From: Clostridia bacterium
GTDB lineage: Bacteria > Bacillota > Clostridia > Oscillospirales > CAG-272
DNA length: 64,000 nt
Assembly: GCA_017621415.1 (NCBI GenBank)
Contig: JAGATD010000033.1
Location: 83,311-147,310, forward strand
Reading direction: 5' to 3'
Shown: positions 46,907-64,000 of the stretch, piece after piece
How positions within the stretch are numbered: the first letter of the stretch is position 1
Layout of the letters: each line of letters starts with the position of its first letter
Made by a program: the position numbers and the translations under genes
The notes under the pieces: generated by a model
Databases searched by the model: none
Told to the model about the DNA's origin: nothing
What the model saw: the letters and a program-made list of their open reading frames with translations, nothing else

Positions 46907-46953
46907 AATTTGTAAAAACAAAATTTTCAAAAATATGAAAGGTGAAAAAAACT

Positions 46954-49456: not shown

Positions 49457-49581
49457 TCGGTTTTTATTTCAATAAAAAAATGACACTTAACACAAAGATT
49501 GTGAAAGTGTCATAGTGGGTTACATACTTTAAAAAGGTTAAAACCTTACCGAAATTTAATGTTTTTTCGGTGTGTAAAGAA

Positions 49582-49801: not shown

Positions 49802-50626
49802 TTACATCTTCATCAGATAATCGTATGTAGCTTTTACAAGCTTTGTTTTTTGGTGCAGGACCTCTCGGGGGCAGTTCTTTGAGTCGCCGGGGATTTCATA
49901 GTTAAACATCCCCTCGTAATTTATCTCTCTCAGACCGTCAATAAAGTCCTGCCAGTCAATATTTCCACGGCTGAACGGGAGAATATGCTGGTCCTCACCG
50001 CCGTCGTTATCGTGAACGTGCAGAGCTTTTATAAGGCTTCCTCCCTTTACGAGAAATTCCTTTTGAGAGGAGGTTTTTGTCCTGTTAAGGTGGCCTGTAT
50101 CAAGGCAAATTGCAAATTTCGGTGAGCCAACTCTCTTGATTAGCTCGAGAATAGGGTCAATTCCCACAGGAGCGCCGCCGCCAAGGTTTTCAAGACAGAT
50201 GTACATATCAATATGCGCCGTACGTCTTGCAACCTCCTTAAGAGCAACAACATTTTTTTCAAATATGTCCTCGTCGGTCACATCAACCCCGCGCATATAG
50301 TCGCAGTGTAGAACAGAGCACTTAATGCCGATAGCCTCGTAGAGCTCTGCCTGGCGGACAATATAGTCAATAAAGCTTTCACCCTCGCAGACAATAAGAG
50401 AGGGAAAAGCCAAGTGACCCTGCGTTGCGGTAATGCCATGCTCAGCCATAAATTCTTTGAATTTTCTGCCGTTTTCTCTATAGTCTCCATCTCTTGCCAA
50501 AATGGCGCTGCCGTGCTCATGAGAAAGCTCAATATGAGTTACTCCGTCTTTTTCAAACTCGAGAATAGCCTCTTCGGGCTCCTCGGTGTTGTAATACTGT
50601 GACCATATACTAAATGGCGCGTTCAT
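49802..50626 (-). CDS. xylose-isomerase-like TIM-barrel protein (sugar phosphate isomerase/epimerase family)
   Basis: 274 aa; THIELS, CLENL, CLDTGH and HVHDN patterns typical of the AP_endonuc_2 fold. Confidence 0.75.
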   Translation of the reverse strand: MNAPFSIWSQYYNTEEPEEAILEFEKDGVTHIELSHEHGSAILARDGDYRENGRKFKEFMAEHGITATQGHLAFPSLIVCEGESFIDYIVRQAELYEAIGIKCSVLHCDYMRGVDVTDEDIFEKNVVALKEVARRTAHIDMYICLENLGGGAPVGIDPILELIKRVGSPKFAICLDTGHLNRTKTSSQKEFLVKGGSLIKALHVHDNDGGEDQHILPFSRGNIDWQDFIDGLREINYEGMFNYEIPGDSKNCPREVLHQKTKLVKATYDYLMKM

Positions 50627-50669
50627 AGATAATTATACTCCTTTTTCTGGAAGACGCAGTTTGTTTGAT

Positions 50670-51401
50670 TTAGTCGTGTCTTTGGTCCTTACGGTAATAG
50701 GTTTCGCAAAATCTTGCGGCAAATGCAGGCTCAACATCTTTAACATAAAGGTGTGACGTATCGCCAAAGCTGCCCATTCTGAAATATGCGACACCCTCTC
50801 TGCGCTCCTCGGTTACAAGGGTTGTTACAGAAGTGGGCGCAGCGCAGCTGCCGTGCCATAGAGGTACAGGTGAAATATTCAGAATGTGAGAGAGTAAAAC
50901 ACATTCAAGGCCGAAATGGCAGAAGAGAACTACCGTATCCTCGTTGGGTCTCTCAGCACGGTAAACAAGGCCGTCTCTTACATATCCGTGCTTTTCAAGC
51001 AAAGTGTCAAGCCCGTCGCACACATATTTATATGCCTCGGGAACACCCGCCTCCTTGTATACAGGTACGTTCATCCATTTATCCTTGTCGAAAAATTCGG
51101 GGATAACGGTCCAGGCGGTAGGAAGCCAGTCCCAGCAGCAGCTAAGCTCCTCAGCTCCCTCTTTTCCTTTTATCTGAGGAGGAAATTCGCGAAGCCAATC
51201 AAGAGTTTCAGCCTCTCTGCCCATTTTTCTAAGAGTGGGCTTTGAAGTCGCCTGTGCTCTTCCTAATGGGGAGCAATAAAAGGCTGTAACATCCATTTTT
51301 TTAATCTTTTCCGAGAGCAGCTCCGCTTCAATAAAGCCCCCCTCGGTCAGCGAGTCGTGCTCGTAGTCCGGGTCGCCGTGCCTTATGATAATAAGCTTCA
51401 T
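50670..51401 (-). CDS. histidine phosphatase (phosphoglycerate-mutase-like) family protein
   Basis: N-terminal catalytic RHG motif (LIIIRHGDPD) and SPLGRAQ.T. Confidence 0.8.
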   Translation of the reverse strand: MKLIIIRHGDPDYEHDSLTEGGFIEAELLSEKIKKMDVTAFYCSPLGRAQATSKPTLRKMGREAETLDWLREFPPQIKGKEGAEELSCCWDWLPTAWTVIPEFFDKDKWMNVPVYKEAGVPEAYKYVCDGLDTLLEKHGYVRDGLVYRAERPNEDTVVLFCHFGLECVLLSHILNISPVPLWHGSCAAPTSVTTLVTEERREGVAYFRMGSFGDTSHLYVKDVEPAFAARFCETYYRKDQRHD

Positions 51402-51413
51402 AACTTTTCCTCT

Positions 51414-52310
51414 TTATCCGAGACGTCTTTCGTAAAGGGTCATAAAGTCCTCTTCGGTAACACCCGAGTGCTCGTAAGGACAGTCGTAAACAGGGTCGGG
51501 GAATGTGAGAAGCCCGCCGAGAATATTCTCGTGGTCTGCGCCGCCCATTTTGTAGAGCTTATGCTCATCACATACCTTTTCGTAGAAGTCGTGCTCCTCG
51601 GGAGTGAGCATAGAGTGCCTGGTCTCAAAGCCCATAACACCCATGTTGATATAATAATCTACAAGATGACCGTTGTTATGAGGGTGGGCAATAACAGGAA
51701 CACCGCCCGCCGCCTTTATGATACGTACAACGTCCTCGGTTATAATGTCCTTGTAGCCGTATCCGATAATTTCGCGAATCTTATCCTCGTAGCCCAGACG
51801 GTAAGAGAAGTTGGGCTTTAGGAACACGTCGTCATACTCTGCCTTTATGTAAATTCCGCGCTTAAGCATGGATTCAAAGACCTGGTTGTTGCAGATGTAG
51901 TCGTTATAGGGGTGGTCGTCAAGCACGTCTTGCCAAGTAATACCGTCTCTGAGAGTTCCGCGCTCCTGTCCCCACTTAAAGAGCAGCTCAGAGCGTTTTG
52001 TCTGAATGGAAGACCCTTTGCGCAAAAGCTCACGCATTTCGGGGTACTCGGGGTCAAAGTCAAAGCCGCAAAGATGCGCTCCGCCATGCCGGTTATGGGT
52101 AGAGAACTCACATCCCATCATGGTTTTCATGCCGCGTCTGTCGCACTCAGCCTTGATAAAGGGATAACCCTTTGCTGTGTCGTGGTCGGTGAGAATGATT
52201 CCACCGTGTCCCATGTTCCATGCCATTCTCGCCAGAGTTTCGGGGGTATATTCCGCATCCGAGAAGCAGGAGTGGTTATGGCAGCTTGCAAAAATTCTTA
52301 CATCACTCAT
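51414..52310 (-). CDS. PHP-domain metal-dependent phosphoesterase
   Basis: CHNHSCFSD..YTPE......GHGGIILTDHD (PHP motifs I/II) and downstream His clusters (IAHPH). Confidence 0.75.
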   Translation of the reverse strand: MSDVRIFASCHNHSCFSDAEYTPETLARMAWNMGHGGIILTDHDTAKGYPFIKAECDRRGMKTMMGCEFSTHNRHGGAHLCGFDFDPEYPEMRELLRKGSSIQTKRSELLFKWGQERGTLRDGITWQDVLDDHPYNDYICNNQVFESMLKRGIYIKAEYDDVFLKPNFSYRLGYEDKIREIIGYGYKDIITEDVVRIIKAAGGVPVIAHPHNNGHLVDYYINMGVMGFETRHSMLTPEEHDFYEKVCDEHKLYKMGGADHENILGGLLTFPDPVYDCPYEHSGVTEEDFMTLYERRLG

Positions 52311-52573
52311 TTTTAAATACCTCGTGTCTTTGTCCTCAATAAATTCAAGGAGAGTATATTGTTAATTATAGCACAAAAGACCTGCTTGGTCAAGATTATT
52401 TCATAAAATAAATAAAATATTTTAAATATTTTAAGCTGCGCTGTTAATTAAGCTTGAAACAATGCTAACAACTAATAAAATGGGTTAAGAATTGATAAGC
52501 TAAATTGGCAAATAATCTTGAAAAATGAAAAGAATTGTTTGCAAAATACCTGCAAATTGCGTTTTTTAGGAAA

Positions 52574-52612
52574 TAAAAAATTCGAAGAGAAAAAATCTCT
52601 TCGAATTTTTTG
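52574..52612. terminator. bidirectional terminator ending the T-box-controlled two-gene operon
   Basis: AATTCGAAGAGA-AAAAA-TCTCTTCGAATT flanked by A- and T-runs. Confidence 0.75.
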
Positions 52613-52642
52613 TATGTGATTTGCAGGCTGAAGCTCTGCGAG

Positions 52643-55156
52643 TTAAGATTTTGCCGGTCCTGCGGTGTCGGAGCCGTCTCCGACCAGTCCGAGGCGCTTT
52701 GCGGCATCCTCTCTCATCTTATATTTAAGAACCTTTCCCGCAGCATTCATAGGGAAGCTGTTAACAAATTCAATGTACTTCGGAACCTTATGACGCGCCA
52801 TACTTGCCTTAATGTAGTCGGACATTTCCTCAACGGTAACGCTACCCGGCTCTTTAAGGATAATGCAAGCCATAATTTCCTCACCGTATTTTTTATCGGG
52901 AACACCGATAACCTGTACGTCCTTTGTCTGAGGGTGAGTATAGATGAACTCCTCAATTTCTTTAGGATAAATATTTTCGCCTCCGCGGATTATCATATCC
53001 TTAAGACGTCCTGTAATGCGGTAGTTGCCATCCTCGTCACGGGATGCAAGGTCGCCCGAGTGAAGCCAGCCGTCCTCGTCTATTGTGCCCTTTGTTGCCA
53101 TAGGCATTTTGTAATAGCCTTTCATCTGGTTGTAGCCCTTGGCGCAGAACTCACCGTTAACACCGGGTCCAACCTCTTCGCCTGTTTCGGGGTCTACTAT
53201 CTTGCAGCGAACGTGCGGGAATGCGTATCCAACCGTTTCGGTACGCACCTCAAGTGAGTCAGTCCAGGAGCTCATTGTGTTTCCGGGAGCGCATTCGGTC
53301 TGACCGTAAACGCTGACAATACCTGTCATATTCATTTCATCGGGCCTTGCGGCTCTGCGCATAAGCTCAGGGGGACAGCCCGCACCTGCCATAATACCTG
53401 TTCTCATATGGGAGAAGTCGGTAGAACGGTAGCTTGGGTGGTTAAACATTGCGATAAACATCGTGGGAACGCCGTTAAAGCAGGTGATTTTTTCCTGATT
53501 TATACAAGCGAGAGATGATTTTGCGGAGAAGTATGGCATAGGACACATGGTAGTTCCGTGGGTCATTGATGATGTCATAGACAGTGTCATTCCGAAGCAG
53601 TGGAACATAGGCACCTGAATCATCATTCTGTCAGCGGTGGAAAGACCCATGCGGTCGCCTATACACTTGCCGTTATTTACAACATTGTAGTGAGTAAGCA
53701 TAACTCCCTTAGGGAAGCCTGTTGTTCCTGAGGTGTATTGCATGTTACATACATCGCTTGGGCGTACCGCCGCTGCCATTTTAGCAACCTGCTCGGAGCT
53801 TACAAGCTTGTATCTTGCCATAGCCTCGTCAAAGGTGAGAGAGCCGGGCTGCTTGAAGCCTACTGTAATAACATTTCTGAGGAATGGCAGCTTCTTTGAA
53901 TGAAGAGGCTCGCCGGGAACGGTGTCTTTTATTTCGGGACAGAGTGTGTTTATAATTTCCTTGTAGTTTGAGTCAAGGCAGCTGTCAATCATAACCAGTG
54001 TATGGGTATCAGACTGACGGAGCAGGTACTCGGCCTCGTGAATCTTATATGCGGTGTTAACTGTGACAAGAACTGCACCGAGCTTTACGGTAGCCCAGAA
54101 TGTGATATACCACGCGGGAAGGTTTGTTGCCCATATTGCAACCTTAGAGCCCGCCTTTACACCAAGAGAAACAAGAGCTCTTGCAAAGCGGTCAACGTCC
54201 TCACGGAACTCGGCATAGGTTCTTGTGTAATCAAGTGTTGTGTACTTAAAGCAGTACTGGTCAGGGAACTCGTCGGCAACTCTGTCAAGCACCTGTGAAA
54301 ATGTAAGGTCGATAAGCTCGTCTTTTTTCCACACATACTGGCCTGTGCCGTCATGGTTGAAGTAGAGTTTCTTTTTCATATCCCTTGTTGAATGGAAGCG
54401 GGACATGTAGTTTACAAAATGAGGGAAAATAATTTCGGGGTCAGAGAGCTCGTCGAGCCACTCGGGCTTCCACTCAAGAGAGATAAAGTTATCGTAGTTT
54501 ACCGAGGAAAGAGCGCGCATAACGTCGTCAATAGGCATACTGCCCTCGCCGATAAGCTGATATGTTCCCTCATCGTCAGAGTCTCTTAAGTGAACATGGC
54601 GCACATAGCAGCCAAGGTTTTTTATTGTATCATCACCCGACTCACCGTTGTCTCTGTATGGGTGATGAACGTCCCAAAGAACCGCAAGATTGTCGCTTGC
54701 AAAACGGTCAAGCATATCTCTAAGTCTTGCTGTGTTTGAATAAATTCCGCTTGTTTTTACAAGAATTGTAACATCCGAGGCTTCAGCATAAGGTAAAAGC
54801 TCGGTGAGCACCGAATATACAGTATCCTCATTGTCATTAAGCGCGCATACAACAACATAGGGCACACGGCTGTCGCTTGCAGTATTTATAAGAGACTTTA
54901 CGGTATCCTTTACAGATGGGTCTTTGGAGATGTCGCAGGATGTGTCAAAGCAGGGAATAGTGAGCTGCTTTTCGCGAAGAGTGCGCACTGTTGCAGCAGT
55001 ATTATACTTGTGGAAAGGACCTCCGCGGTCGGTAAGAGCATTAAAGCTTTGAAGATTATAAACCTCTATGCCGGAAAAACCCATTTCCTGCGCTGTTTCC
55101 AGCATTTCATCAAAGGACAGCCCCGGCCAGCCTCTTGTGGAAAAGGAGAGCTTCAT
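52643..55156 (-). CDS. fusion protein: N-terminal xylose-isomerase-like TIM barrel (~270 aa) + C-terminal AMP-forming acyl-CoA synthetase/ligase (~560 aa)
   Basis: N-terminus: MKLSFSTRGW...GFSGIEVY...HVHLRD...SLEW. C-terminus: AMP-binding motif YTSGTTGFPKGV, GYGQTE-like VYGQTE, WLHSGDL, GRLKDMIIRGGENIYPKEIE. ATGA overlap with the upstream gene. Confidence 0.85.
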   Translation of the reverse strand: MKLSFSTRGWPGLSFDEMLETAQEMGFSGIEVYNLQSFNALTDRGGPFHKYNTAATVRTLREKQLTIPCFDTSCDISKDPSVKDTVKSLINTASDSRVPYVVVCALNDNEDTVYSVLTELLPYAEASDVTILVKTSGIYSNTARLRDMLDRFASDNLAVLWDVHHPYRDNGESGDDTIKNLGCYVRHVHLRDSDDEGTYQLIGEGSMPIDDVMRALSSVNYDNFISLEWKPEWLDELSDPEIIFPHFVNYMSRFHSTRDMKKKLYFNHDGTGQYVWKKDELIDLTFSQVLDRVADEFPDQYCFKYTTLDYTRTYAEFREDVDRFARALVSLGVKAGSKVAIWATNLPAWYITFWATVKLGAVLVTVNTAYKIHEAEYLLRQSDTHTLVMIDSCLDSNYKEIINTLCPEIKDTVPGEPLHSKKLPFLRNVITVGFKQPGSLTFDEAMARYKLVSSEQVAKMAAAVRPSDVCNMQYTSGTTGFPKGVMLTHYNVVNNGKCIGDRMGLSTADRMMIQVPMFHCFGMTLSMTSSMTHGTTMCPMPYFSAKSSLACINQEKITCFNGVPTMFIAMFNHPSYRSTDFSHMRTGIMAGAGCPPELMRRAARPDEMNMTGIVSVYGQTECAPGNTMSSWTDSLEVRTETVGYAFPHVRCKIVDPETGEEVGPGVNGEFCAKGYNQMKGYYKMPMATKGTIDEDGWLHSGDLASRDEDGNYRITGRLKDMIIRGGENIYPKEIEEFIYTHPQTKDVQVIGVPDKKYGEEIMACIILKEPGSVTVEEMSDYIKASMARHKVPKYIEFVNSFPMNAAGKVLKYKMREDAAKRLGLVGDGSDTAGPAKS

Positions 55157-56556
55157 TCTACTTCCTCCTCGTAAATTATTTTGTTAAGTGCACTGAGATA
55201 CGCCTGTATACCAGCGCCTACAATGTCGGTGGATATTCCTCTTCCGGAATACACCTTTGCGCCCGAGCGGAGCTTGACAATGGTCTGTCCCATAGCCTCG
55301 CGACCTTCGGTTACTGCCTGGAGCTGGAAGTCATCAAGCTCGTAGTGGCAGCCGGTGATTTTTTCAATAGCCTGGAATGCGGCATCGATAGAGCCGTCTC
55401 CGATATACACACCCTCGGTGGGCATGCCGTTTTTCAAGAGCTTGATATGAGCGGTGGCGGAAATGGTATTTCCGGATGTAATAACATAGGTGTCAAGCTT
55501 GTATGTAGGCGGAACCTGCATGGCAGATGACGCAACTATTGCATCAAGCTCCTTTAAGCCAACCTTTTCCTTTTTCTCTGCAATTTGCATGAATGCGTTA
55601 TATACCTTAACACTGTCCTCCTCAGAGAGGTCATAGCCAAGCCTCTGGACCGCAAGAGTCACTGCGGCTATGTCATCGTGAGAGGTAAGATAAATGTCGG
55701 ATTCCTCGCTTTGTGTGGCTGCGACTGCATTTTTCTTTCCGGGATGGCACATCCAGTTTATCTGGTCAATTATTCTGCTGAGCTGAGTTGTTTTAACCCC
55801 GCTGAATGCATCAAGAGTATCCGACTTTGCCGCAAGTATACGCGCAATATTCGCAACAGATGCCGCATCAATGGGATATGCCGCAGCTCTTATCTGCTCA
55901 GCTCCTGCGGATGCTGCGGCAATTGCGCAGGCATCTGCCATAGAAATCGCATCAGAGCAGCAAACACCGAGGCATACTTTTTTTAGCTCGGGAAGATTTT
56001 CATATTGGAGCTTAATGAATGCCGCAAATTCATCAGGAAGCATAGCGCTTGCCGTATCGCAAACTGTAACAGTTGTCGCTCCCGCATCAATTGCCGTTTT
56101 TAATGCCAATGTAAGGAAGGATTGCTCGCTCCTTGTTGCGTCGCCTGCAATAAATTCAACATCGGGGCAGAGAGATGCGCACTTTGCGACAGATGTTTTT
56201 ATAGCCTCTATCATCGCATCGGGCTTCTTGTGGAACAGATATTCAATCTGCACGGCGCTTGTAGGCGCAAACACCTGAAGCCTCGGCTTTTTAGCAGTCT
56301 TTAAAGCTGCCCATGTAGCCTCAATGCTTTCATTATTTAATTCTACGGGAACGGCAACGGCGCTGTCGGCAACGGCCGCTGCAATAGACTTTATACGAAG
56401 GGAGTCAATACGGGCGTTGCTTATTCCCTCAAGCTCAATCACGTCAACTCCGAGCTTGTCAAGCAGCTTCGAAAATTCTATCTTTTCTTTAAATGATAGG
56501 TTAAAGTTTTCGGATATCTGCTTCATTGTTGCATCGCTGATTTTGATTTGTTTCAT
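55153..56556 (-). CDS. 2-isopropylmalate-synthase-like protein with degenerate catalytic motifs but an intact LeuA C-terminal regulatory domain
   Basis: Collinear with LeuA (PRLQVFAPTS, DVEFIAGDATRSE, DAGATTV.VCDT; C-terminal Y.L....TSG......A.I.L..NG....GV..G.GSIDAAF.AI..I). TLRDGEQ is replaced by ATMKQIS and HxH(D/N)D by CCSDA. Start at ATG 56556 behind AAGGAG. Confidence 0.8.
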   Translation of the reverse strand: MKQIKISDATMKQISENFNLSFKEKIEFSKLLDKLGVDVIELEGISNARIDSLRIKSIAAAVADSAVAVPVELNNESIEATWAALKTAKKPRLQVFAPTSAVQIEYLFHKKPDAMIEAIKTSVAKCASLCPDVEFIAGDATRSEQSFLTLALKTAIDAGATTVTVCDTASAMLPDEFAAFIKLQYENLPELKKVCLGVCCSDAISMADACAIAAASAGAEQIRAAAYPIDAASVANIARILAAKSDTLDAFSGVKTTQLSRIIDQINWMCHPGKKNAVAATQSEESDIYLTSHDDIAAVTLAVQRLGYDLSEEDSVKVYNAFMQIAEKKEKVGLKELDAIVASSAMQVPPTYKLDTYVITSGNTISATAHIKLLKNGMPTEGVYIGDGSIDAAFQAIEKITGCHYELDDFQLQAVTEGREAMGQTIVKLRSGAKVYSGRGISTDIVGAGIQAYLSALNKIIYEEEVE

Positions 56557-56605
56557 AACTTTTTCTCCTTTCAATATAAAAACAAACGTCAGTAAAATAG
56601 CAATT

Positions 56606-56880
56606 CAAAAAAACAAAAATCCCTGAGGCTGCCAAACGCAGCTTCAGGGACGAAAATACATTTCGCGGTACCACCCTGATTATCCCCCAAAAAGGGAAAT
56701 CTCTCAACCTCAAACAAGGTATTGCCCTGTAACGGTGGCATCCGTGTCTCATTACTCGCGTATCGCTTTGACAAGACCGACTCGGGAAGAAGAATGCCCA
56801 ACCCATCCGTATCGGCTTACACCAACCGCCGACTCTCTGCAACATCCGAAAAGGGCAAGATTTCCGTCACTGTCTTTAAG
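56606..56880 (-). promoter_or_regulatory. T-box leader (tRNA-sensing riboswitch) with terminator/antiterminator
   Basis: On the - strand: K-turn GACAGUGACGGAA, AGAGAG box, distal GGUUGGUGUAAGCC, F-box CCGUUA, T-box AAUCAGGGUGGUACCGCG. Terminator CCCUGAAGCUGC-GUUU-GGCAGCCUCAGGG followed by AUUUUUGUUUUUUU. Confidence 0.9.
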
Positions 56881-56903: not shown

Positions 56904-56932
56904 ATTTAATCACTAAACTGCCGTTTTGTCAA
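56904..56932 (-). promoter_or_regulatory. promoter for the - strand T-box operon
   Basis: On the - strand: TTGACA, 17 bp, TTAAAT. Confidence 0.5.
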
Positions 56933-57057: not shown

Positions 57058-57065
57058 AAACTCAT

Positions 57066-57316
57066 AAAAACTGTGACGAAGACGGTACGGTGAAAAAGTT
57101 CTCAGAGAATCGGCGGTTGGTGTGAGCCGATAGCTTGTAGCCTCAGTGCCTATCACTTCCGAGTTGGTGGTTCGAGCGATTATCGCCAGGGCTTACCCGT
57201 GCACCCGCGTTAAGGGATAGGGCTTGTTGGAGTCTGAAGCGGCGATCTATCGCAATTTGAGTGGTACCGCGGGTATATTTACTCGTCTCAAGAATTATTT
57301 CTTGAGATTTTTTTGT
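57066..57316 (+). promoter_or_regulatory. T-box leader (tRNA-sensing riboswitch) with terminator/antiterminator
   Basis: K-turn AACUGUGACGAAG, AGAGAA box, distal GGUUGGUGUGAGCC, F-box-like GCGUUAA, T-box AAUUUGAGUGGUACCGCG. Terminator UCUCAAG-(7 nt)-CUUGAGA followed by UUUUUUU. Confidence 0.9.
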
Positions 57317-57442
57317 TTTTATAGGACTTTTTAAGTCTGATTTATCCCTATTACTATTAAACTAGCGGTTTTGTGTTTCATTATAACTAATGAAATAATT
57401 CTATAATCCAAAAACCAAAAAAACGAACAGGAGGAAAAAGCT

Positions 57443-59710
57443 ATGACGAAACAAACCGAAACAAATCAACTTCAGAGGATAGCGCTTCGAATTCGCGAAA
57501 TGCGTCAGATTCTCGGTTTTACTACGGCGGAGATGGCAGAGAAAACAGATCTCACAGAAGAGACCTATCTCTCATACGAGTCGGGCACAGTTGATTTACC
57601 ATTTACATTTATGCACAAGTGTGCGAAGGTGTGCGGCATAGAGATTACCGATATTCTTGAGGGACACAGCGCAAAGCTGTCGGGATATACAATCACCCGC
57701 AAGGGCGAGGGACTCACTACTGCCAGCGAGGACGGCATCACCATTCAGGATATGGCGCCTCTCTTCCGTCAGAAGCTTGCAACCCCATATTGGGTTACAT
57801 ATAAATATTCCGAGGAGCTTCAGAGCCAGCCTATAAGCACGGTTACTCACGCAGGTCAGGAGTTTGACCTTGTATTAAAGGGTGCTATGCGTATCCGTGT
57901 TGGCGAGAAGGAAGAGGTTCTTCGCGAGGGCGACAGCATCTTCTATAAATCCTCAACACCCCACGGTATGATTGCTGTTGAGGGTGAGGATTGCGTATTC
58001 CTTGCAATGGTTATGGCAAGCGATACAACCGATACTCCTATGTATATCGGAAACGGTGACTACAAGGTGTCTGAGAGACCTCTTCTTTGTGAGAAGTTTG
58101 TTAAGCCTGTTGAGGACGAGAACGGAGTTCTTGTTGATATTAATTATGAGAATGAAGAAAAGTATAACTTTGCCTTTGATACAGTTGACGAAATAGCCCG
58201 TAAGTATCCCGATAAGCTGGCTATGCTCCATATTTCTAACGATATGACAGAGCGCCGCTTTACATTTAAGGATATGAAAGATGCCTCCTCACAGAGCGCA
58301 AACTACTTTAAGTCCCTGGGAATCAAGCGCGGCGACAGAGTTATGCTGGTGCTTAAGAGACATTACCAGTTCTGGTTTGCTATTCTCGGTCTTCATAAGC
58401 TTGGCGCTATTGCTATTCCCGCAACAAATCAGCTGGTAGAGCATGACTTTACCTATCGCTTCAAGGCGGCAGGAGTAAGCGCAATTCTCTGTACTGCAGA
58501 CGGTGATACCGCGCATCAGGCAGAGCTTGCAGAGGCAGCCAGCGGTCTTTCGCTTACCAAAATTATGGTTGGCGGAGAGAGAGAGGGCTGGCACAACTAC
58601 GACCGTGAGTTTGTTCTCTTCAGCCGTAGATATGTGCGTGAGGCTGATGCTCCCTGCGGAAGCGACCCTATGCTTATGCTGTTTACTTCGGGAACAACAG
58701 GCTATCCCAAGATGGCTATGCATTCATATAAGTATGCTCTCGGTCATTACGTAACCGCAAAATACTGGCACCTTTGCCGACCCGACGGATTACACTTTAC
58801 CATTTCCGAAACAGGATGGGGTAAGGCGCTTTGGGGTAAGCTTTACGGTCAATGGCTCTGCGAGGGCGCGGTATTTACCTACGACTTTGACAGATTTGAT
58901 TCGGCAAAGATTCTTCCTATGTTTGCCAAGTATAAAATCACCACATTCTGCGCGCCTCCCACAATGTACAGGATGCTTATCAAGCAGGATTTAAGTCAGT
59001 ATGACCTCTCCTCTATCCGCCACGCAACTACTGCGGGTGAGGCGCTTAACCCCGAGGTGTTCTATCAGTTTGAAAAGTCCACAGGGCTTCGTATCGCTGA
59101 GGGCTTCGGTCAGACCGAGATGACTCTCGGTATCGGAAACCTGCTTGGCACACAGCTTAAGCCCGGCGCTATGGGTAAGCCTATCCCCGGATATGGCATA
59201 GACCTTGTTGATACAGACGGAAATCCGGTTGCCGACGGTGTAAACGGTGAAATAGTTATCCGTACCGAGCCTAAAACCGCCTGCGGCGTATTCCTCGGTT
59301 ATTATCTCAACCAAGAGGCGACCGACAATGTATGGCATGACGGTATGTACCATACAGGCGACCTCGCTTGGCGCGATGAGGACGGATATTACTGGTATGT
59401 GGGACGCGCCGATGACGTTATCAAGTCTTCGGGCTACCGTATCGGTCCGTTCGAGATAGAGTCTACAATTATGGAGCTTCCTTATGTTCTTGAGTGCGGT
59501 GTTTGCGCAGCTCCCGACGAGGTTAGAGGTCAGGTTGTTAAGGCGTGCATCGTGCTTGTTAACGGAACAGAGGGCACAGAGGAGCTGAAAAAGGAAATTC
59601 AGAATTACGTAAAGCTTCATACAGCCCCCTACAAGTATCCCAGAATTGTAGAATTCCGCAAAGAACTGCCTAAAACAATAAGCGGTAAAATAATGAGAAA
59701 TAAGCTGTAA
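57443..59710 (+). CDS. fusion protein: XRE-type HTH + cupin domain (~190 aa) + medium-chain-type AMP-forming acyl-CoA synthetase
   Basis: HTH IREMRQILGFTTAEMAEKTDLTEETYLSYESG; cupin HAGQEFDLVLKG..R..VG......GDSIFY.S..PHGM. AMP-binding FTSGTTGYPK, GFGQTE, YHTGDLA, GRADDVIKSSGYRIGPFEIES and a C-terminal SGKI.R. Confidence 0.85.
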   Translation: MTKQTETNQLQRIALRIREMRQILGFTTAEMAEKTDLTEETYLSYESGTVDLPFTFMHKCAKVCGIEITDILEGHSAKLSGYTITRKGEGLTTASEDGITIQDMAPLFRQKLATPYWVTYKYSEELQSQPISTVTHAGQEFDLVLKGAMRIRVGEKEEVLREGDSIFYKSSTPHGMIAVEGEDCVFLAMVMASDTTDTPMYIGNGDYKVSERPLLCEKFVKPVEDENGVLVDINYENEEKYNFAFDTVDEIARKYPDKLAMLHISNDMTERRFTFKDMKDASSQSANYFKSLGIKRGDRVMLVLKRHYQFWFAILGLHKLGAIAIPATNQLVEHDFTYRFKAAGVSAILCTADGDTAHQAELAEAASGLSLTKIMVGGEREGWHNYDREFVLFSRRYVREADAPCGSDPMLMLFTSGTTGYPKMAMHSYKYALGHYVTAKYWHLCRPDGLHFTISETGWGKALWGKLYGQWLCEGAVFTYDFDRFDSAKILPMFAKYKITTFCAPPTMYRMLIKQDLSQYDLSSIRHATTAGEALNPEVFYQFEKSTGLRIAEGFGQTEMTLGIGNLLGTQLKPGAMGKPIPGYGIDLVDTDGNPVADGVNGEIVIRTEPKTACGVFLGYYLNQEATDNVWHDGMYHTGDLAWRDEDGYYWYVGRADDVIKSSGYRIGPFEIESTIMELPYVLECGVCAAPDEVRGQVVKACIVLVNGTEGTEELKKEIQNYVKLHTAPYKYPRIVEFRKELPKTISGKIMRNKL

Positions 59711-59757
59711 TTTTCAGCATAATTTATTGAACCAAAAGTGAAATTTATCAAAAAGTA

Positions 59758-59787
59758 TTGACAAGACCCGACAAGGTTATGTATAAT
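59758..59787 (+). promoter_or_regulatory. near-consensus sigma-A promoter in front of the second synthetase paralogue
   Basis: TTGACA (59758-59763), 18 bp, TATAAT (59782-59787). Confidence 0.6.
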
Positions 59788-59859
59788 ATAATTTGATAAA
59801 TTTTACTTTTAATAGATTTTTCTATCAAAAGACAGTAAACTTTGTAAAAGAGGTACGAT

Positions 59860-62145
59860 GTGGAACCGATTTTGAACGAAATGGAAAACAAAATAAAGCA
59901 AATAGCAAATCGTATAAAGGAGCTTCGTCTTATCACAGGTCTTTCTGTCCAGGAAATGGCTACTCGCACAGGTACTACTGTCGAGGAATACGAACAGTGC
60001 GAGGCAGGTAACCGCAACTTAAGCATTGCATTCCTTTATCACTGTACATTAAGCTTCGGCGTTGATATGGGAGATATCCTTGAGGGTAAAAGCCCCAAGC
60101 TCCGCTCGTATGCGCTTACACGCAAAGGCGACGGTCAGAAAATAGAGGAAGCTCATCATATGATAGGCTATAACCTTGCTTCCGGCTTCCGCAACCGTAT
60201 TGCATTGCCGCTTTATATGGAACTTGGATATCGCGAGGGCTCGGAAAATCAGCCTATTGATCTTGTAACTCACGAGGGTCAGGAATGTGATATCGTGATT
60301 AAGGGTCAAATGAAAATTCAGATTGGCGACCACTCTGAGATACTGAATCCCGGCGATTGTATTTATTATGACTCCGGCACACCCCACGGTATGATTGCCG
60401 TAAACGGCGAGGATTGTACATTCTATGCTATCGTGCTCCGCAACCAGGCGGCAAGAGAGGGTGAGCAGGTAGCTGAAATGTCGGCTGCCACCAAGCGCCT
60501 TGAGGAGGATTCAAAGCGCCGTGTATATCACGACTTTATTATTCCAACCGAAGAAAACGGTGTTCTTAAGAAGATTGAATTCAAGAATGAAGAGAAGTTC
60601 AACTTTGCCTTTGATGTTGTTGATGCTCTTGGCAGACGCAAGCCCGAGAAGCTTGCTATGCTTCACGTAAGCGAGGACGGAACTGAAAGGCGCTTTACAT
60701 TCCGCGATATGAAAAAGGAGTCGGCAAGAGCTGCCAACTACTTTAAATCTCTGGGTATCAAGCGCGGTGATAGGGTAATGCTTGTTTTGAAGCGCCACTA
60801 TCAGTTCTGGTTTGCTATTCTTGGTTTACATAAGCTTGGTGCGGTTGCTATTCCCGCACCCAACCAGCTTCTAGAAAAGGACTTTAAATACCGCTTTGAG
60901 GCAGGTAAGGTAAAGGCTATACTCTGCACCTCTGACGGTGAGGTTGCCGATGCGGTAGATAAGGCAGCTGCTCAATGCCCCGGACTTGAATACAAGATAA
61001 TTGTGGGTAAGGACAGAGAGGGCTGGCATAACTTCAATGAGGAGTATGCTATCTTCAGCAGCCATTATGCCCGCACAGAGGATGCGCCCTGCGGCAGCGA
61101 CCCGATGCTGATGTACTTTACCTCGGGAACCAGCGGCTATCCCAAAATTGCGGCTCATAACTATAAATATCCTCTCGGTCACTTTATAACCGCTAAGTAT
61201 TGGCACCAGGTTAATCCCGAGGGACTTCACTTCACAATTTCCGATACAGGCTGGGCAAAGGCTATGTGGGGTAAGCTTTACGGCCAGTGGCTCTGTGAGG
61301 CGGCAAACTTTGTTTACGACTTTGACAGATTTGATGCCGAGAAGATACTTCCTCAGTTTGCAAAGCATAAGATTACTACATTCTGCGCACCTCCCACAAT
61401 GTACAGAATGCTGATAAAGCAGGATCTTTCAAGGTTTGACCTCTCTTCAATAGAGCATGCATCGACTGCGGGCGAGGCGCTTAACCCTGAGGTATTCCGC
61501 CAGTTTGAAAAGCACACAGGTCTTAAGATTATGGAGGGCTTCGGCCAGTCCGAGAGTACACTTATTATCGGTAATCTTGCGGGCGGCAGCCACAAGATAG
61601 GCTCTATGGGTAAGCCTGTTCCTCTTTACGACGTTCATCTTCTTAACCCCGACGGTGAGGAGGTTCAGAGAGGTGAAAGCGGTGAGATATGCATAAATAT
61701 CTCGAACGGACTTCCTTGCGGTCTTGCATATGCATATGAGGCAAACGAGGAGGTTACCCGCGAGACCTGGCGTGAGGGATATTATCACACAGGCGACGTT
61801 GCTTGGATGGATGAGGACGGATTCCTCTGGTATGTCGGACGCGCTGATGACGTTATTAAGTCCTCGGGCTACAGAATAGGTCCGTTTGAGATTGAGAACG
61901 TAATTATGGAGCTTCCTTATGTTCTTGAGTGCGGCGTTTCTGCCGCTCCCGATGAAATAAGAGGCCAGGTAGTTAAGGCAAGCATAGTTCTCGTTAGTGG
62001 TACCGAGGGAACAGACGAGCTGAAAAAAGAAATTCAGAATTACGTTAAGTCCCGTACCGCGCCTTACAAGTACCCAAGAATTGTGGAATTCCGTGAGAGT
62101 CTTCCTAAGACCACCAGCGGAAAGATTATAAGAAAACAACTTTAA
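59860..62145 (+). CDS. second HTH-cupin::acyl-CoA synthetase fusion (tandem paralogue of 57443..59710)
   Basis: Same architecture with long identical stretches (ANYFKSLGIKRGDRVMLVLKRHYQFWFAILGLHKLGA; ITTFCAPPTMYRMLIKQDLS; GRADDVIKSSGYRIGPFEIE). GTG at 59860 behind AGAGGT; alternative ATG at 59881. Confidence 0.85.
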   Translation: MEPILNEMENKIKQIANRIKELRLITGLSVQEMATRTGTTVEEYEQCEAGNRNLSIAFLYHCTLSFGVDMGDILEGKSPKLRSYALTRKGDGQKIEEAHHMIGYNLASGFRNRIALPLYMELGYREGSENQPIDLVTHEGQECDIVIKGQMKIQIGDHSEILNPGDCIYYDSGTPHGMIAVNGEDCTFYAIVLRNQAAREGEQVAEMSAATKRLEEDSKRRVYHDFIIPTEENGVLKKIEFKNEEKFNFAFDVVDALGRRKPEKLAMLHVSEDGTERRFTFRDMKKESARAANYFKSLGIKRGDRVMLVLKRHYQFWFAILGLHKLGAVAIPAPNQLLEKDFKYRFEAGKVKAILCTSDGEVADAVDKAAAQCPGLEYKIIVGKDREGWHNFNEEYAIFSSHYARTEDAPCGSDPMLMYFTSGTSGYPKIAAHNYKYPLGHFITAKYWHQVNPEGLHFTISDTGWAKAMWGKLYGQWLCEAANFVYDFDRFDAEKILPQFAKHKITTFCAPPTMYRMLIKQDLSRFDLSSIEHASTAGEALNPEVFRQFEKHTGLKIMEGFGQSESTLIIGNLAGGSHKIGSMGKPVPLYDVHLLNPDGEEVQRGESGEICINISNGLPCGLAYAYEANEEVTRETWREGYYHTGDVAWMDEDGFLWYVGRADDVIKSSGYRIGPFEIENVIMELPYVLECGVSAAPDEIRGQVVKASIVLVSGTEGTDELKKEIQNYVKSRTAPYKYPRIVEFRESLPKTTSGKIIRKQL

Positions 62146-62195
62146 TACATAAAGCGCCGTCTGCCCGATATAGGGTAGACGGAAAGAGAAATACT

Positions 62196-62864
62196 ATGGA
62201 TTCTAAAAGATTAACTCTCTTTGCAGGGCACTATGGCAGCGGCAAAACCAACATTGCTGTAAACTATGCTTTACATCTTGCAGAGAAAGGGAAGAAAGTC
62301 TGTATTGCCGATCTGGATATTGTTAATCCGTATTTCAGAACGAAGGACAGCGAGAGGGAACTCAAGGAAGCCGGAATTGAGCTGGTTTCTCCAAAGTATG
62401 CTAACAGCAACGTGGACCTGCCTGCGCTGCCTGCCGAGAGCTACCGTCTTGTTCAGGATAAGTCTGTGTACGGTATAATGGATATCGGCGGCGATGACAG
62501 AGGCGCTTATGCGCTGGGTAGGTTTGCTGATTTTATAAAGGCAGAGGATGATTACCGTTTTGTCTTTGTGGTAAATTGCTTCCGGCCGCTTACCTCTACT
62601 GTTGATGACGCGATAGAAATCATGCGCGAAATTGAGAAGGCGGCGGGACTTGAGTTTACCTGTATAGTAAATAATTCCAATATTGGAAAAGAGACAACGA
62701 CAGAGCTGTTTTTGACAACGCTCGACTTTGTCCAAGACTTAAGCGAAAAAACAGGGCTTCCGATATGGATGCATACTGCGGAGCGCTCTGTTGCGGAGGG
62801 ACTTTCGGGTCTTACCGTTCTGCCTATGACGCTTCAAAAGAAATATTTTGACCTGCCCGACTGA
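62196..62864 (+). CDS. P-loop NTPase of the MinD/ParA/CooC-like (SIMIBI) type
   Basis: N-terminal Walker A GHYGSGKTNIA, DLDIVNPYF and MDIGGDD (Walker B-like); 222 aa. Confidence 0.7.
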   Translation: MDSKRLTLFAGHYGSGKTNIAVNYALHLAEKGKKVCIADLDIVNPYFRTKDSERELKEAGIELVSPKYANSNVDLPALPAESYRLVQDKSVYGIMDIGGDDRGAYALGRFADFIKAEDDYRFVFVVNCFRPLTSTVDDAIEIMREIEKAAGLEFTCIVNNSNIGKETTTELFLTTLDFVQDLSEKTGLPIWMHTAERSVAEGLSGLTVLPMTLQKKYFDLPD

Positions 62865-62905
62865 TAGCGGTTATATGGCAGGCTTGATTATAAGGAGGAA
62901 TATAA

Positions 62906-63112
62906 ATGGCAAAGGTAACTTTTAATACCGATATGTGTAAGGGCTGCGGTCTTTGTGTTGATGCGTGCCCTAAAAAATGTCTTGCGATTGCAGACGACAA
63001 GCTTAACCAAAAGGGCTACTCTCCCGCTTATATGAAAGAGCAGGAGAAGTGTATTGGATGCGCATTCTGTGCAACAATGTGCCCCGATTGTATAATTACT
63101 GTTGAAAAGTAA
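62906..63112 (+). CDS. 2x[4Fe-4S] ferredoxin-type delta subunit of a 2-oxoacid:ferredoxin oxidoreductase
   Basis: CKGCGLCVDACP and CIGCAFCATMCP motifs; 68 aa; immediately upstream of the alpha subunit. Confidence 0.85.
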   Translation: MAKVTFNTDMCKGCGLCVDACPKKCLAIADDKLNQKGYSPAYMKEQEKCIGCAFCATMCPDCIITVEK

Positions 63113-63127
63113 GGAAAGGAGACTGTT

Positions 63128-64000
63128 ATGGCAGAAAGAATTTTAATGAAAGGCAACGAGGCTATTGCTGAAGCTGCGATAAGAGCAGGTTGCCGTCACT
63201 ATTTTGGTTATCCTATCACTCCCCAGACTGAGATTGCCGCTTATATGGCAAAGAAAATGCCTAAGATTGGCGGAGTATTTCTTCAGGCAGAGAGCGAAAT
63301 TGCATCTATAAACATGGTATATGGCGCAGCTGCGGCAGGTATGCGTGTTATGACATCATCCTCCAGCCCCGGAGTTTCACTTAAGGCTGAGGGTCTTAGC
63401 TACATAGCCGGCTCTGATGTTCCCGCGCTTGTTGTTAACGTACAGAGAGGCGGCCCCGGTCTCGGCGGTATTCAGCCCTCTCAGTCTGATTATTTCCAGG
63501 CTACAAAGGGCGGCGGACACGGTGATTACCGTATGATAGTTCTTGCTCCCGCATCGGTTCAGGAAATGGCAAGTCTTACTATCAAGGGCTTCGACCTTGC
63601 TGATAAATACTGCGTTACCTCTATGATCCTTGCCGACGGAACAATCGGTCAGATGATGGAGCCTATTACCTTTGAGGACACCGAGCCTAAGGTTTATGAC
63701 AAGCCCTGGGCGCTTACAGGTACTGAGGGAAAGCGTAAGCACAATGTTGTTAACTCACTTTACCTTAAGCCCGACGAGCTTGAAAAGAAGAATTTCGAGC
63801 GTTATGAAAAATACGCTGAGATAGAGAAGAACGAGGCTATGTGGGAGGAATATATGATGGACGATGCCGAATATTGCGTTGTAGCATTCGGTATTGCATC
63901 CCGTGTAGCGAAGAATGCGGTAGTAGCCGCAAGAGAAGAGGGAATTAAGGTAGGTCTTATCCGTCCTATCACCCTTTGGCCCTTCCCCACAGCTGCTTTT
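63128..64000 (+). CDS. vorB: 2-oxoacid:ferredoxin oxidoreductase alpha subunit, VorB-like (3' end outside the window)
   Basis: Not in the ORF track because there is no stop before the window end. My translation: MAERILMKGNEAIAEAAIRAGCRHYFGYPITPQTEI....FLQAESEIASINMVYGAAAAGMRVMTSSSSPG...VVNVQRGGPGLG. Confidence 0.8.
   Translation, partial: MAERILMKGNEAIAEAAIRAGCRHYFGYPITPQTEIAAYMAKKMPKIGGVFLQAESEIASINMVYGAAAAGMRVMTSSSSPGVSLKAEGLSYIAGSDVPALVVNVQRGGPGLGGIQPSQSDYFQATKGGGHGDYRMIVLAPASVQEMASLTIKGFDLADKYCVTSMILADGTIGQMMEPITFEDTEPKVYDKPWALTGTEGKRKHNVVNSLYLKPDELEKKNFERYEKYAEIEKNEAMWEEYMMDDAEYCVVAFGIASRVAKNAVVAAREEGIKVGLIRPITLWPFPTAAF

Follow-up and report, generated by a model that had tools for sequence, protein, structure and literature searches.

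A predicted catalytically dead 2-isopropylmalate synthase paralogue coupled to an acyl-CoA ligase as a candidate leucine sensor

What does a homologue of 2-isopropylmalate synthase (LeuA) do when its catalytic residues are gone and its regulatory domain is kept? The question is raised by an open reading frame at 55153..56556 on the minus strand of the window (the whole 64,000-nucleotide stretch of gut Clostridia DNA that was analysed). It encodes 467 aa, has AGGAG ahead of its ATG, and is annotated by NCBI as a hypothetical protein; the program-made list of open reading frames starts it further upstream, with a TTG at 56574. Alignments and structural comparison give good support to the prediction that the gene encodes a catalytically dead LeuA paralogue, here named pseudo-LeuA, of which we found no prior description in the literature. 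The features of the locus are collected in Table 1.

Table 1. Features at and around the pseudo-LeuA locus, by position in the window.
Feature	Position	Strand	Basis
18-bp palindromic hairpin past the ligase stop, where the bicistronic operon probably ends	52573..52613		sequence scan
Ligase fusion aa 276-837 plus stop, ANL-family acyl-CoA ligase	52643..54331	-	PF00501 3.1e-90, PF13193
Ligase fusion aa 1-260, xylose-isomerase-like (XI) TIM barrel, probably degenerate	54377..55156	-	PF01261 3.1e-22
ATGA stop/start overlap, pseudo-LeuA/ligase	55153..55156	-	read directly from sequence
Pseudo-LeuA C-terminal regulatory/dimerisation part	55153..55551	-	PF08502 9.4e-29; secondary structure from AF2 model
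Pseudo-LeuA aa 271-335, reduced accessory region that retains the subdomain II helices but has lost subdomain I with its HxSGIH	55552..55746	-	MSA gap, pLDDT
Pseudo-LeuA aa 1-270, barrel of the DRE-TIM type lacking D, R, E and HxH	55747..56556	-	Pfam, PDB alignments, MSA, AF2, Foldseek
Intrinsic terminator, CCCTGAAGCTGC-GTTT-GGCAGCCTCAGGG then T-run	56604..56649	-	read from sequence
T-box leader (tRNA-sensing riboswitch)	56643..56879	-	RF00230, 112.4 bits, E 1.2e-24, full model 1-219
T-box core AGGGUGGUACCGCG; UGGU pairing with the tRNA ACCA end, discriminator A	56664..56677	-	Rfam alignment and sequence
Specifier codon CUU (leucine) in the Stem I specifier loop	56790..56792	-	Rfam alignment and sequence
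Putative sigma-70 promoter of the Leu operon: TTGACA, 17 nt, TTAAAT, TG upstream	56904..56932	-	inference from sequence
Divergent T-box leader, isoleucine-specific (AUC then A)	57064..57293	+	RF00230, 94.5 bits
Two HTH-cupin::acyl-CoA synthetase genes (57443-59710 and 59860-62145), MbcS-like	57443..62145	+	profile matches
P-loop NTPase (62196-62864); 4Fe-4S delta subunit (62906-63112); OFOR alpha (63128 to window end, cut)	62196..64000	+	POR_N 1.6e-49, PFOR_II, Fer4

Fold and lost catalytic site of pseudo-LeuA

The protein is LeuA-like over its full length, as an earlier note on this DNA had claimed. Pfam places an HMGL-like domain at aa 17-225 (1.6e-29) and LeuA_dimer at aa 335-460, and LeuA is the top match in Pfam, NCBIfam and Foldseek alike. 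The AF2 model (pLDDT 91) has the LeuA fold and superimposes on 3ewb with an rmsd of 1.7 A (TM 0.93 of target; Foldseek). The score of 290 bits compares with a LeuA equivalog cut-off of 532 bits; the CimA match is weak, and every LeuA, CimA and NifV equivalog cut-off lies far above what the protein scores.

Catalytic residues were compared by pairwise alignment to the solved LeuAs 3ewb and 3rmj and in an MSA with true LeuAs. We found that DTTLRDGEQ has become DATMKQISE (R to K, D to Q, G to I, E to S and Q to E). The earlier note had reported the loss of TLRDGEQ with the reading ATMKQIS; that reading is one residue out of register, the correct one being TMKQISE, and the slip leaves the loss itself unaffected. 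Its other readings held up in the alignments: HCHDD is replaced by CCSDA, so that HxH is CxS, and the HESGIHQDG block is a gap in a 100-sequence MSA. In addition, the catalytic Glu of SAEDA is Gly, the GxGERxGN loop is deleted as compared with true LeuAs, and aa 271-295 are disordered in the AF2 model (pLDDT 57-62). At its end, one phmmer local alignment weakly pairs SEESDIY with SHESGIH, but this candidate was rejected, as it holds no His and coincides with the MSA gap and the AF2 disorder.

In M. tuberculosis LeuA (MtLeuA), the substitutions R80K, R80A and E218A each abolish activity (PMC10464499). Where MtLeuA has R80, D81 and E218, the window protein carries K, Q and G. These columns are also unconstrained across the family. 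In an MSA of representatives of about 100 clusters at 50% identity, the first His is E/Q/S/C/R/A, the Asp is E/Q/N/K/L/D and the Arg is R/K/C/A/Q.

Constraint on the regulatory domain

The C-terminal domain, described previously as well preserved, is the most conserved module of pseudo-LeuA. Its identity to true LeuAs is 39-43%, as compared with 28-34% for the barrel. Among 65 loci, pairwise identity is 89% in the regulatory domain, 64% in the barrel and, lowest in the protein, 54% in accessory aa 271-335; the value for the ligase is 91%. Across the family, the major-residue frequency reaches 0.70 for the regulatory domain and 0.46 for the barrel, and six of the eight family-invariant residues lie in the former. 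In the structural model, G386/G388 (GDGS/IDA) cap the N-terminus of helix 389-401, and G440/D444 (GIST/D) that of helix 445-466. In MtLeuA, the N-termini of two helices enclose the leucine carboxylate where the regulatory domains meet in the dimer (PMC11057210), and it is the corresponding two helices that four of the eight invariants cap. The Pro of GDGPIDA, which is the consensus of both the family and LeuA, is Ser in the window protein.

The barrel retains the near-invariant residues D8, T10, F22, P98, S100, E105, Y106, K111, D139, R142 and D167. As compared with the closest locus, dN/dS is 0.04-0.08 in all three segments and about 0.06 in the barrel. A dead barrel under such clear purifying selection must have a specific task, and this could be to bind a ligand and not to dock. 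The open reading frame is intact, at 450-485 aa, in more than 100 clusters (50% identity) and in at least 324 species genomes; chance is excluded for these features, as hundreds of genomes share them.

Coupled ligase, T-box leader and pathway genes

The pseudo-LeuA stop overlaps the start of a TIM::acyl-CoA-ligase gene, as had been noted, and this partner proved universal in the sampled loci. The ligase Shine-Dalgarno sequence, GAGGAGGA, lies within the C-terminal EEE codons of pseudo-LeuA; the 4-nt overlap recurs in 78 of 87 loci, with the rest within -1 to +4 nt. The XI-TIM::ligase gene is directly downstream in 80/80 close loci, in all seven distant contigs with room for it and in 74/74 second-clade loci; wherever downstream sequence is available, in about 160 loci with identities as low as 35%, the fusion adjoins pseudo-LeuA. 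No fusion of the two genes occurs among 270 listed homologues. The two proteins are made in a fixed, translationally coupled stoichiometry. The ANL ligase motifs are intact (TSGTTGFPKG, YGQTE, GWLHSGD, GRLKD and the final GK); the closest NCBIfam model is the generic "fatty acid CoA ligase family" NF009233, at 656 bits and below its cut-off. The enzyme is probably a ligase for short or branched-chain acyl groups. Alignments to D-tagatose 3-epimerase and MJ1311 show that the first metal/catalytic Glu of the N-terminal TIM barrel is Lys, and its other ligand positions vary among distant orthologues, suggesting that this barrel is probably non-catalytic as well. According to a promoter scan, the next gene (PHP) has a strong promoter of its own at 52393-52365(-).

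The T-box control claimed in the earlier note was found here, above the RF00230 gathering score of 93, and in many lineages, but 11 of 80 close loci and the loci that are most distant have no T-box upstream of pseudo-LeuA. Where present, the leader is leucine-specific. Among close loci with a T-box core, 68 of 69 have CUC (31), CUG (24) or CUU (13) as the homologous specifier, one not being read; more distant T-box loci have CUC or CUG (41/41). The specifier is a leucine codon in 109/109 loci read, with synonymous exchange among these codons. AUU, UUC and UCU readings were ruled out, as the bases flanking the triplet vary. UGGU is present in 69/69 T-box loci, and the terminator overlaps the 3' half of the antiterminator region. 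When the upstream regions of related loci are aligned, TTGACAAA and GTGaTTAAAT stand out as conserved blocks; the putative promoter is absent from the consensus promoter scan list.

The cluster is predicted to turn short fatty acids into branched-chain amino acids and to be induced by leucine starvation. In about 26 of 77 loci it includes, on the same strand, genes for 2-oxoacid:ferredoxin oxidoreductase (OFOR) alpha/beta/gamma and Aminotran_4; an ELFV (Leu-type) dehydrogenase is upstream in loci L087 and L088, and pseudo-LeuA is often located between OFOR/BCAT genes and the ligase. The divergent operon of the window, under an isoleucine T-box, carries two MbcS-like acyl-CoA synthetases and an OFOR; its specifier in 56 related loci is ATC followed by A (55) or G (1). 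No active LeuA is encoded near pseudo-LeuA, and the context is not leuBCD.

Proposed role, alternatives and related systems

Because the catalytic machinery is lost, the leucine-binding-type domain kept, the ligase always adjacent and the cluster predicted to respond to leucine starvation, pseudo-LeuA is most likely a leucine sensor for the ligase rather than an enzyme. The earlier note had already suggested a sensor or regulatory subunit of this kind; the parts of its proposal open to sequence analysis were borne out, more strongly than it had put them, and the proposal as a whole has partial support. We give an even chance to the fuller proposal, in which it is the non-catalytic, leucine-sensing partner of an isovalerate-CoA ligase in a reductive-carboxylation route to leucine. 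The pair would form the entry step: the ligase would convert isovalerate to isovaleryl-CoA, OFOR would yield 2-oxoisocaproate, and a branched-chain aminotransferase or leucine dehydrogenase would produce leucine. When leucine is scarce, uncharged tRNA-Leu would open the leader and the operon would be transcribed. Leucine may bind in the pocket between the two regulatory domains of a pseudo-LeuA dimer, as in LeuA, and the rigid, leucine-bound form would restrain the ligase, probably through contact of the dead barrel with the ligase TIM domain, adding fast end-product feedback to slower tRNA-sensing transcriptional control. The regulated partner could instead be OFOR or the aminotransferase. 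The Ser in GDGPIDA, the lack of a pseudo-LeuA/ligase fusion among the listed homologues, the selection on the barrel and the lineages without a T-box count against the proposal.

It is conceivable, if unlikely, that pseudo-LeuA is a non-catalytic scaffold or assembly factor, forming a metabolon with the ligase (perhaps with OFOR and the aminotransferase) or stabilising the ligase, with no leucine signal and the regulatory domain kept for dimerisation only. The synteny and coupling fit this equally, as does the frequent position of pseudo-LeuA between OFOR/BCAT genes and the ligase; PF08502 is a dimerisation as well as an allosteric domain, and other DRE-TIM proteins work in tight two-enzyme complexes, such as the DmpG-type aldolase-dehydrogenase matches 1nvm and 4jn6 (Foldseek). 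However, operon control is specifically by leucine, and the invariants are the glycine-rich helix caps that form the LeuA ligand site, not a generic interface (PMC11057210). If that site does hold a ligand, it is leucine that we favour; a different effector (isoleucine as for CimA, valine, 2-oxoisocaproate or isovaleryl-CoA), or activation in place of inhibition, seems rather doubtful. All T-boxes found on pseudo-LeuA operons are Leu-specific, the neighbouring operon using Ile, and the regulatory domain is nearest to bacterial LeuA models. On the other side, the homologous citramalate synthase domain senses isoleucine and a weak CimA match exists, ketoisocaproate is bound in the MtLeuA crystal barrel (3hps title), and barrel residues D139, R142 and D167 are still conserved.

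Purifying selection on the barrel and its handful of near-invariant residues (D8 to D167) would also fit a surviving enzyme that has a rebuilt, metal-independent site and catalyses a new reaction of a branched 2-oxo acid or acyl-CoA. We regard this as improbable. No former catalytic or metal position is constrained from one family member to the next, two loops of the active site are missing (subdomain I on the CoA side is one of them), the barrel evolves faster than the rest and the equivalog scores are far too low. That pseudo-LeuA is a functionless, decaying leuA relic, as the missing motifs and the NCBI label might suggest, is barely credible: an intact frame of constant length in hundreds of species, down to 35% identity, the low dN/dS and the conserved translational coupling effectively refute it.

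Pseudo-LeuA shares with bacterial LeuA (N. meningitidis 3RMJ, Listeria 3EWB, M. tuberculosis 1SR9/3FIG) the TIM barrel, accessory helices and C-terminal beta-beta-beta-alpha x2 allosteric/dimerisation domain. Unlike LeuA, it is without the Arg/Asp/Glu/His-x-His set, the GxGERxGN loop and the HxSGIH subdomain, falls short of it by about 40 residues, has an acyl-CoA ligase as its constant partner in place of a leuBCD context, and has the conservation inverted, with the regulatory domain above the barrel. HisZ derives from histidyl-tRNA synthetase, has no catalytic activity and serves the short ATP-phosphoribosyltransferase as its histidine-sensing regulatory subunit. Its logic is the same, a dead paralogue of an amino-acid-recognising enzyme being kept as end-product sensor of a different, pathway-committing enzyme; fold and partner differ, and complex and histidine inhibition are experimentally shown for HisZ, whereas we infer their counterparts for pseudo-LeuA. 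IlvN/IlvH, the small subunit of acetohydroxyacid synthase with an ACT-domain valine sensor, is likewise a separate polypeptide giving branched-chain amino-acid feedback, its gene adjoining that of the committed-step enzyme, but it has the ACT fold and no enzyme ancestry. The trypanosome AdoMetDC prozyme is a dead paralogue that regulates its own active paralogue (PMC5201418). Like other pseudoenzyme regulators it is under purifying selection and acts by protein-protein contact, whereas pseudo-LeuA is paired with an unrelated enzyme, the ANL ligase. MbcS is the short branched-chain acyl-CoA synthetase of S. aureus (PMC10026030, PMC11167679). It feeds fatty-acid synthesis and has no pseudo-LeuA partner, TIM fusion or T-box; the activation of branched short-chain acids is the step in common, and the HTH-cupin synthetases beside the pseudo-LeuA operon score 427 bits with the NCBIfam model for MbcS, below its cut-off of 850.

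Fold and active site of pseudo-LeuA

The LeuA-like protein of the window, pseudo-LeuA, matched the HMGL-like barrel PF00682 at residues 17-225 (1.6e-29) and the LeuA allosteric/dimerisation domain PF08502 at residues 335-460 (9.4e-29, covering 126 of 131 profile positions) in Pfam. Its best NCBIfam matches were the bacterial LeuA equivalogs, with the citramalate, homocitrate and archaeal models scoring it far lower; it rose above no curated LeuA, CimA or NifV equivalog cut-off in NCBIfam and fell far short of all of them, the best match being to NF002086 (290 bits vs. a 532-bit cut-off). An AlphaFold2 model computed from the family alignment of 116 sequences showed a mean pLDDT of 91.2. The top Foldseek matches of this model were methylthioalkylmalate synthase and full-length Mycobacterium tuberculosis LeuA (MtLeuA), including the leucine-bound structure 3FIG, and the Listeria LeuA barrel 3ewb superposed with an rmsd of 1.7 Å and a TM-score of 0.93 of the target. 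As modelled, pseudo-LeuA has the LeuA fold from end to end, in agreement with the whole-length alignment to LeuA described in the earlier note.

Features of the window discussed in the text
Feature	Position	Strand	Remarks
Pseudo-LeuA ORF	55153..56556	-	467 aa; ATG start nine bases 3' of AGGAG
Ligase fusion	52643..55156	-	837 aa
XI-like TIM barrel of the ligase (AP_endonuc_2)	54377-55156	-	Metal set Glu-Asp-His-Glu not matched
T-box leader RF00230	56643..56879	-	112.4 bits vs. gathering score 93; full-length match (Rfam)
Divergent operon	57064-64000	+	Second T-box at its start (94.5 bits)
Separate downstream operon	49802-52310	-	Own strong promoter, 52393-52365
Gut-1 RNA RF01706	49680-49755	-	54.9 bits (gathering score 50)
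Inverted Gut-1 copy	49552-49633	+	Weaker, 35.8 bits
Large ORF	7660-13014	+	1784 aa
Large ORF	40086-45326	+	1746 aa
Large ORF	46942-49146	+	734 aa

In the xLRDGxQ motif of LeuA, the Arg binds the 2-oxo acid and the Asp binds the metal. We located the catalytic positions by pairwise alignments to solved LeuAs and by a multiple alignment including two genuine database LeuAs (P0265 and P0269), which carry DTTLRDGEQ, HCH(D/N)DLG, GxGERAGNA and H(E/S)SG(I/V)HQ. DTTLRDGEQ was found to be replaced by DATMKQISE in pseudo-LeuA, with Arg changed to Lys and Asp to Gln; the earlier note had read TLRDGEQ as ATMKQIS, which is correct as to the loss of the motif and off by one residue in register, an immaterial shift. 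The metal-binding HxH(D/N)D motif, HCHDD in LeuA, reads CCSDA, and the catalytic Glu of SAEDA (E218 in MtLeuA, xAEDAxR motif) is a Gly. Both the GxGERxGN loop and the HESGIHQDG block (HxSGIH motif, accessory subdomain I) are deleted, appearing as gaps in the multiple alignment, and residues 271-295 are of low confidence in the AlphaFold2 model. A weak phmmer alignment paired SEESDIY with SHESGIH, a pairing that was upheld neither by a 100-sequence alignment nor by the model. The comparison with LeuA proposed in the earlier note therefore ended with the Arg, Asp, Glu and His-x-His all lost, and its readings of CCSDA and of the absent HESGIHQDG region stood. Each of the substitutions R80K, R80A and E218A destroys the activity of MtLeuA (table in PMC10464499); pseudo-LeuA carries the equivalent of R80K and has lost all three metal ligands.

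We surveyed the same columns in 100 representatives of the family of pseudo-LeuA homologues, one per 50%-identity cluster. The first His column held E/Q/S/C/R/A, the second His was mostly S, and the Asp and Arg columns held E/Q/N/K/L/D and R/K/C/A/Q, respectively. This drift of the former catalytic columns, with no new conserved set in their place, is the hallmark of an abandoned active site. That pseudo-LeuA is a pseudoenzyme is well supported by these alignments.

No match to the HCS_D2 subdomain (PF22617) was found in pseudo-LeuA by Pfam, unlike P0264 (L092 7001-8536) and P0267 (L093), two partly degenerate LeuA-like proteins of 500-511 aa that keep this subdomain. Their motifs read TLCDGEQ/RAYNDLG, or TLCEGER/HSQNDLG without HESGIH, and an aconitase/LeuC-type gene directly follows that of P0264. 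Other LeuA lineages may also be non-canonical or inactive.

Conservation of the regulatory domain

The C-terminal LeuA-type domain, described as well preserved in the earlier note, was indeed the best-conserved part of the protein. In the regulatory domain, the major residue had a mean frequency of 0.70 across the family, as against 0.46 for the barrel (residues 1-270) and 0.41 for the accessory region (residues 271-335). Among 65 syntenic loci, the mean pairwise identity was 89% for the regulatory domain, 64% for the barrel and 54% for the accessory region, as compared with 91% for the ligase encoded downstream and 74% for its TIM domain; an identity filter on the ligase matches excluded paralogous synthetases from this comparison. 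Identity to true LeuAs was likewise 39-43% in the regulatory domain vs. 28-34% in the barrel.

Six of the eight residues invariant in the 116-sequence alignment lie within the regulatory domain. According to the alignment and the model, the two regulatory helices are capped at their N-termini by G386/G388 (GDGS|IDA) and G440/D444 (GIST|D), and these invariant Gly-rich caps match the Leu-carboxylate site described for LeuA (PMC11057210). The window protein shows a Pro-to-Ser change in GDGPIDA. When the regulatory-domain sequence was searched by itself against the PDB, no match at E <= 1 was found, so that no solved structure served as a template for assigning individual pocket residues. The LeuA enzyme is a domain-swapped dimer, rigidified when leucine is bound (PMC9860122).

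Against the closest locus, dN/dS was 0.057 (barrel), 0.082 (accessory region) and 0.037 (regulatory domain); these values are rough, as dS is near saturation. Judged from these ratios, purifying selection acts on the whole of pseudo-LeuA. The protein is thus a homologue of active enzymes, devoid of the catalytic residues and under purifying selection, as expected of a pseudoenzyme that acts as a regulatory subunit.

The operon and its pathway context

The pseudo-LeuA stop overlaps the ATG of the ligase gene (gaATGAag), as the earlier note had it, and a Shine-Dalgarno sequence for the ligase, GAGGAGGA, lies inside the C-terminal Glu codons of pseudo-LeuA. The 4-nt overlap is kept in 78 of 87 loci. 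The ligase is a fusion protein, in which an N-terminal xylose-isomerase-like (XI-like) TIM barrel is joined to a complete ANL acyl-CoA ligase whose signature motifs are intact. It adjoins pseudo-LeuA in all 80 species-genome loci (66-91% identity), in every one of the 74 loci of a second genome sample that extend far enough, in the more distant L089, L090 and L091, and in all seven metagenomic contigs having downstream sequence, whose members are 35-43% identical. Obligate synteny with translational coupling, kept across so deep a divergence, strongly suggests that pseudo-LeuA works with the ligase.

The first metal/catalytic Glu of the XI-like TIM barrel is a Lys in the window and in the related locus L087, and its Asp, His and last Glu are each substituted in at least one distant orthologue. 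This domain thus seems degenerate too, and its rate of evolution is close to that of the dead LeuA barrel; it may therefore be another pseudoenzyme domain, and possibly the docking site. The distance matrices of the two barrels gave a partial r of 0.50 given the ligase, a correlation confounded by shared ancestry and therefore given little weight.

A terminator hairpin and U-run, read from the sequence, follow the T-box leader upstream of pseudo-LeuA, and the specifier-loop triplet of this leader is CUU. The T-box core occurred in 69 of 80 related loci, always with UGGU, and the triplet was CUC (31), CUG (24) or CUU (13) in 68 of the 69; in a second, more divergent sample, CUC or CUG was found in 41 of 41 T-box loci, again with UGGU, the core that matches the tRNA discriminator. 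This synonymous switching among Leu codons identifies leucine as the specificity of the T-box. Readings of the window specifier as AUU (Ile), UUC (Phe) or UCU (Ser) were rejected, as the flanking bases vary and only the CUN triplet is conserved; the Ser reading is also excluded by the UGGU core. Eleven close relatives (L015, L019, L024, L030-L034, L036, L045 and L048) have no recognisable Leu T-box and a shorter intergenic region upstream of pseudo-LeuA; Rfam detected only the divergent T-box in L019 and none at the gathering score in L024. No T-box was found in the distant family members L081-L091. The T-box control claimed in the earlier note thus holds, as a prediction, for the window and most of its relatives but does not extend to these loci.

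The pseudo-LeuA and ligase genes are predicted to form a bicistronic operon, with a long hairpin 3' of the ligase stop and a strong promoter in front of the gene that comes next. A search for RNA-seq evidence of co-transcription found the gene in no RNA run and in gut-metagenome DNA runs only. The separate downstream operon comprises genes for a PHP-domain phosphoesterase, for a protein of the histidine-phosphatase family that weakly resembles CobC/ribazole-phosphatase, and for an intact xylose-isomerase-like TIM protein that weakly resembles CbiR/sugar epimerases; among the related loci, only the closest, L001, keeps it beside the ligase.

In about 26 of 77 loci, the pair lies in a same-strand cluster with genes for a four-subunit 2-oxoacid:ferredoxin oxidoreductase (OFOR) and a class-IV (branched-chain) aminotransferase, located upstream (L091, L094, L114 and others) or downstream (L098, L105 and others); other loci carry a short ELFV (leucine-type) dehydrogenase gene upstream. 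Reductive carboxylation, by which a branched short-chain acid becomes a branched-chain amino acid, takes three steps, and these are exactly ligase, OFOR and aminotransferase. This route has long been known physiologically in rumen bacteria. It is mentioned in PMC7356843. Given the Leu T-box, the ligase would most simply be an isovalerate-CoA ligase.

The T-box of the divergent operon is an isoleucine one (specifier AUC, then A), and AUC is kept in 56 loci. This operon encodes two HTH(XRE)-cupin::acyl-CoA synthetase fusions (MbcS-like, mutually 61% identical), followed by a P-loop NTPase, a 4Fe-4S subunit and an OFOR alpha subunit truncated at the window end. It has the appearance of a branch of the same pathway leading from 2-methylbutyrate to isoleucine. 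The fusion of a DNA-binding HTH and a cupin sensor to an acyl-CoA synthetase is unusual in its own right.

Possible function, distribution and neighbouring features

Three findings suggest that pseudo-LeuA senses leucine: its conservation pattern is inverted, its ligand-site caps are invariant, and its leader is specific for leucine. We predict, with about an even chance of being right, that it is a leucine-sensing regulatory subunit of the ligase, in which leucine binding would exert end-product inhibition at the entry step of the pathway. The same logic underlies HisZ as a regulatory subunit and the AHAS small subunit in feedback control. Pseudo-LeuA may instead be a pure scaffold; the obligate pairing with the ligase would be consistent with this, while the domain conserved best is the one carrying the ligand-site caps, and we regard it as unlikely. 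That it senses another ligand, or regulates with the opposite sign, we think rather improbable, the leader being specific for leucine. A re-invented enzyme would fit the purifying selection on the barrel, and is highly improbable given the drifting catalytic columns. A relic would likewise lack the active site, as pseudo-LeuA does, and is scarcely credible beside the low dN/dS throughout.

The regulatory-subunit reading can be extended, more tentatively, to a module of two pseudoenzymes, in which a leucine-gated dead LeuA dimer docked on the dead TIM of the ligase would gate the ANL ligase alongside the Leu T-box. The allosteric apparatus would then have moved from the committed enzyme of de novo synthesis to that of the isovalerate-to-leucine route.

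Our literature searches, with subscription journals mostly outside their scope, returned no description of a dead LeuA paralogue or of its pairing with a ligase, no paper joining 'isopropylmalate synthase' with 'pseudoenzyme', and none tying a T-box to branched-chain acyl-CoA synthetases. If true, this would be, as far as these searches show, the first LeuA-derived pseudoenzyme, and a clean bacterial case in which the allosteric domain of one enzyme has become the stand-alone sensor of another, unrelated one. It would also assign genes, with Leu/Ile T-box regulation, to a classical but genetically poorly assigned route of rumen and gut anaerobes (leucine/isoleucine from isovalerate/2-methylbutyrate via ligase, OFOR and aminotransferase), making it directly testable. 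A compact, catalysis-free, putative leucine-binding protein could serve biosensor design (compare PMC13381585).

At least 324 species genomes matched family-specific peptides, and, at 50% identity, sequences of the family length (450-485 aa) form more than 100 clusters. The carriers listed are mainly Oscillospiraceae, Acutalibacteraceae, Faecousia, Lachnospiraceae and Christensenellaceae, and all but one are MAGs of uncultured organisms, most of them recovered from the guts of ruminants and other animals; the exception, Erysipelotrichaceae bacterium NK3D112, is not labelled as a MAG and is probably a cultured isolate. The protein is named hypothetical at NCBI, and some members of the family are named 2-isopropylmalate synthase at JGI. 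In metabolic models, the latter name would make hundreds of gut Clostridia appear, wrongly, to carry out the initial reaction of de novo leucine synthesis.

Elsewhere in the window, Rfam matched one Gut-1 RNA above the gathering score and a weaker inverted copy, and a Gut-1 match was also found in L024. The three very large ORFs probably encode surface proteins; the 1784-aa ORF had no Pfam match at 1e-5, and the translated 734-aa ORF shows a signal-peptide-like N-terminus and two internal repeats.
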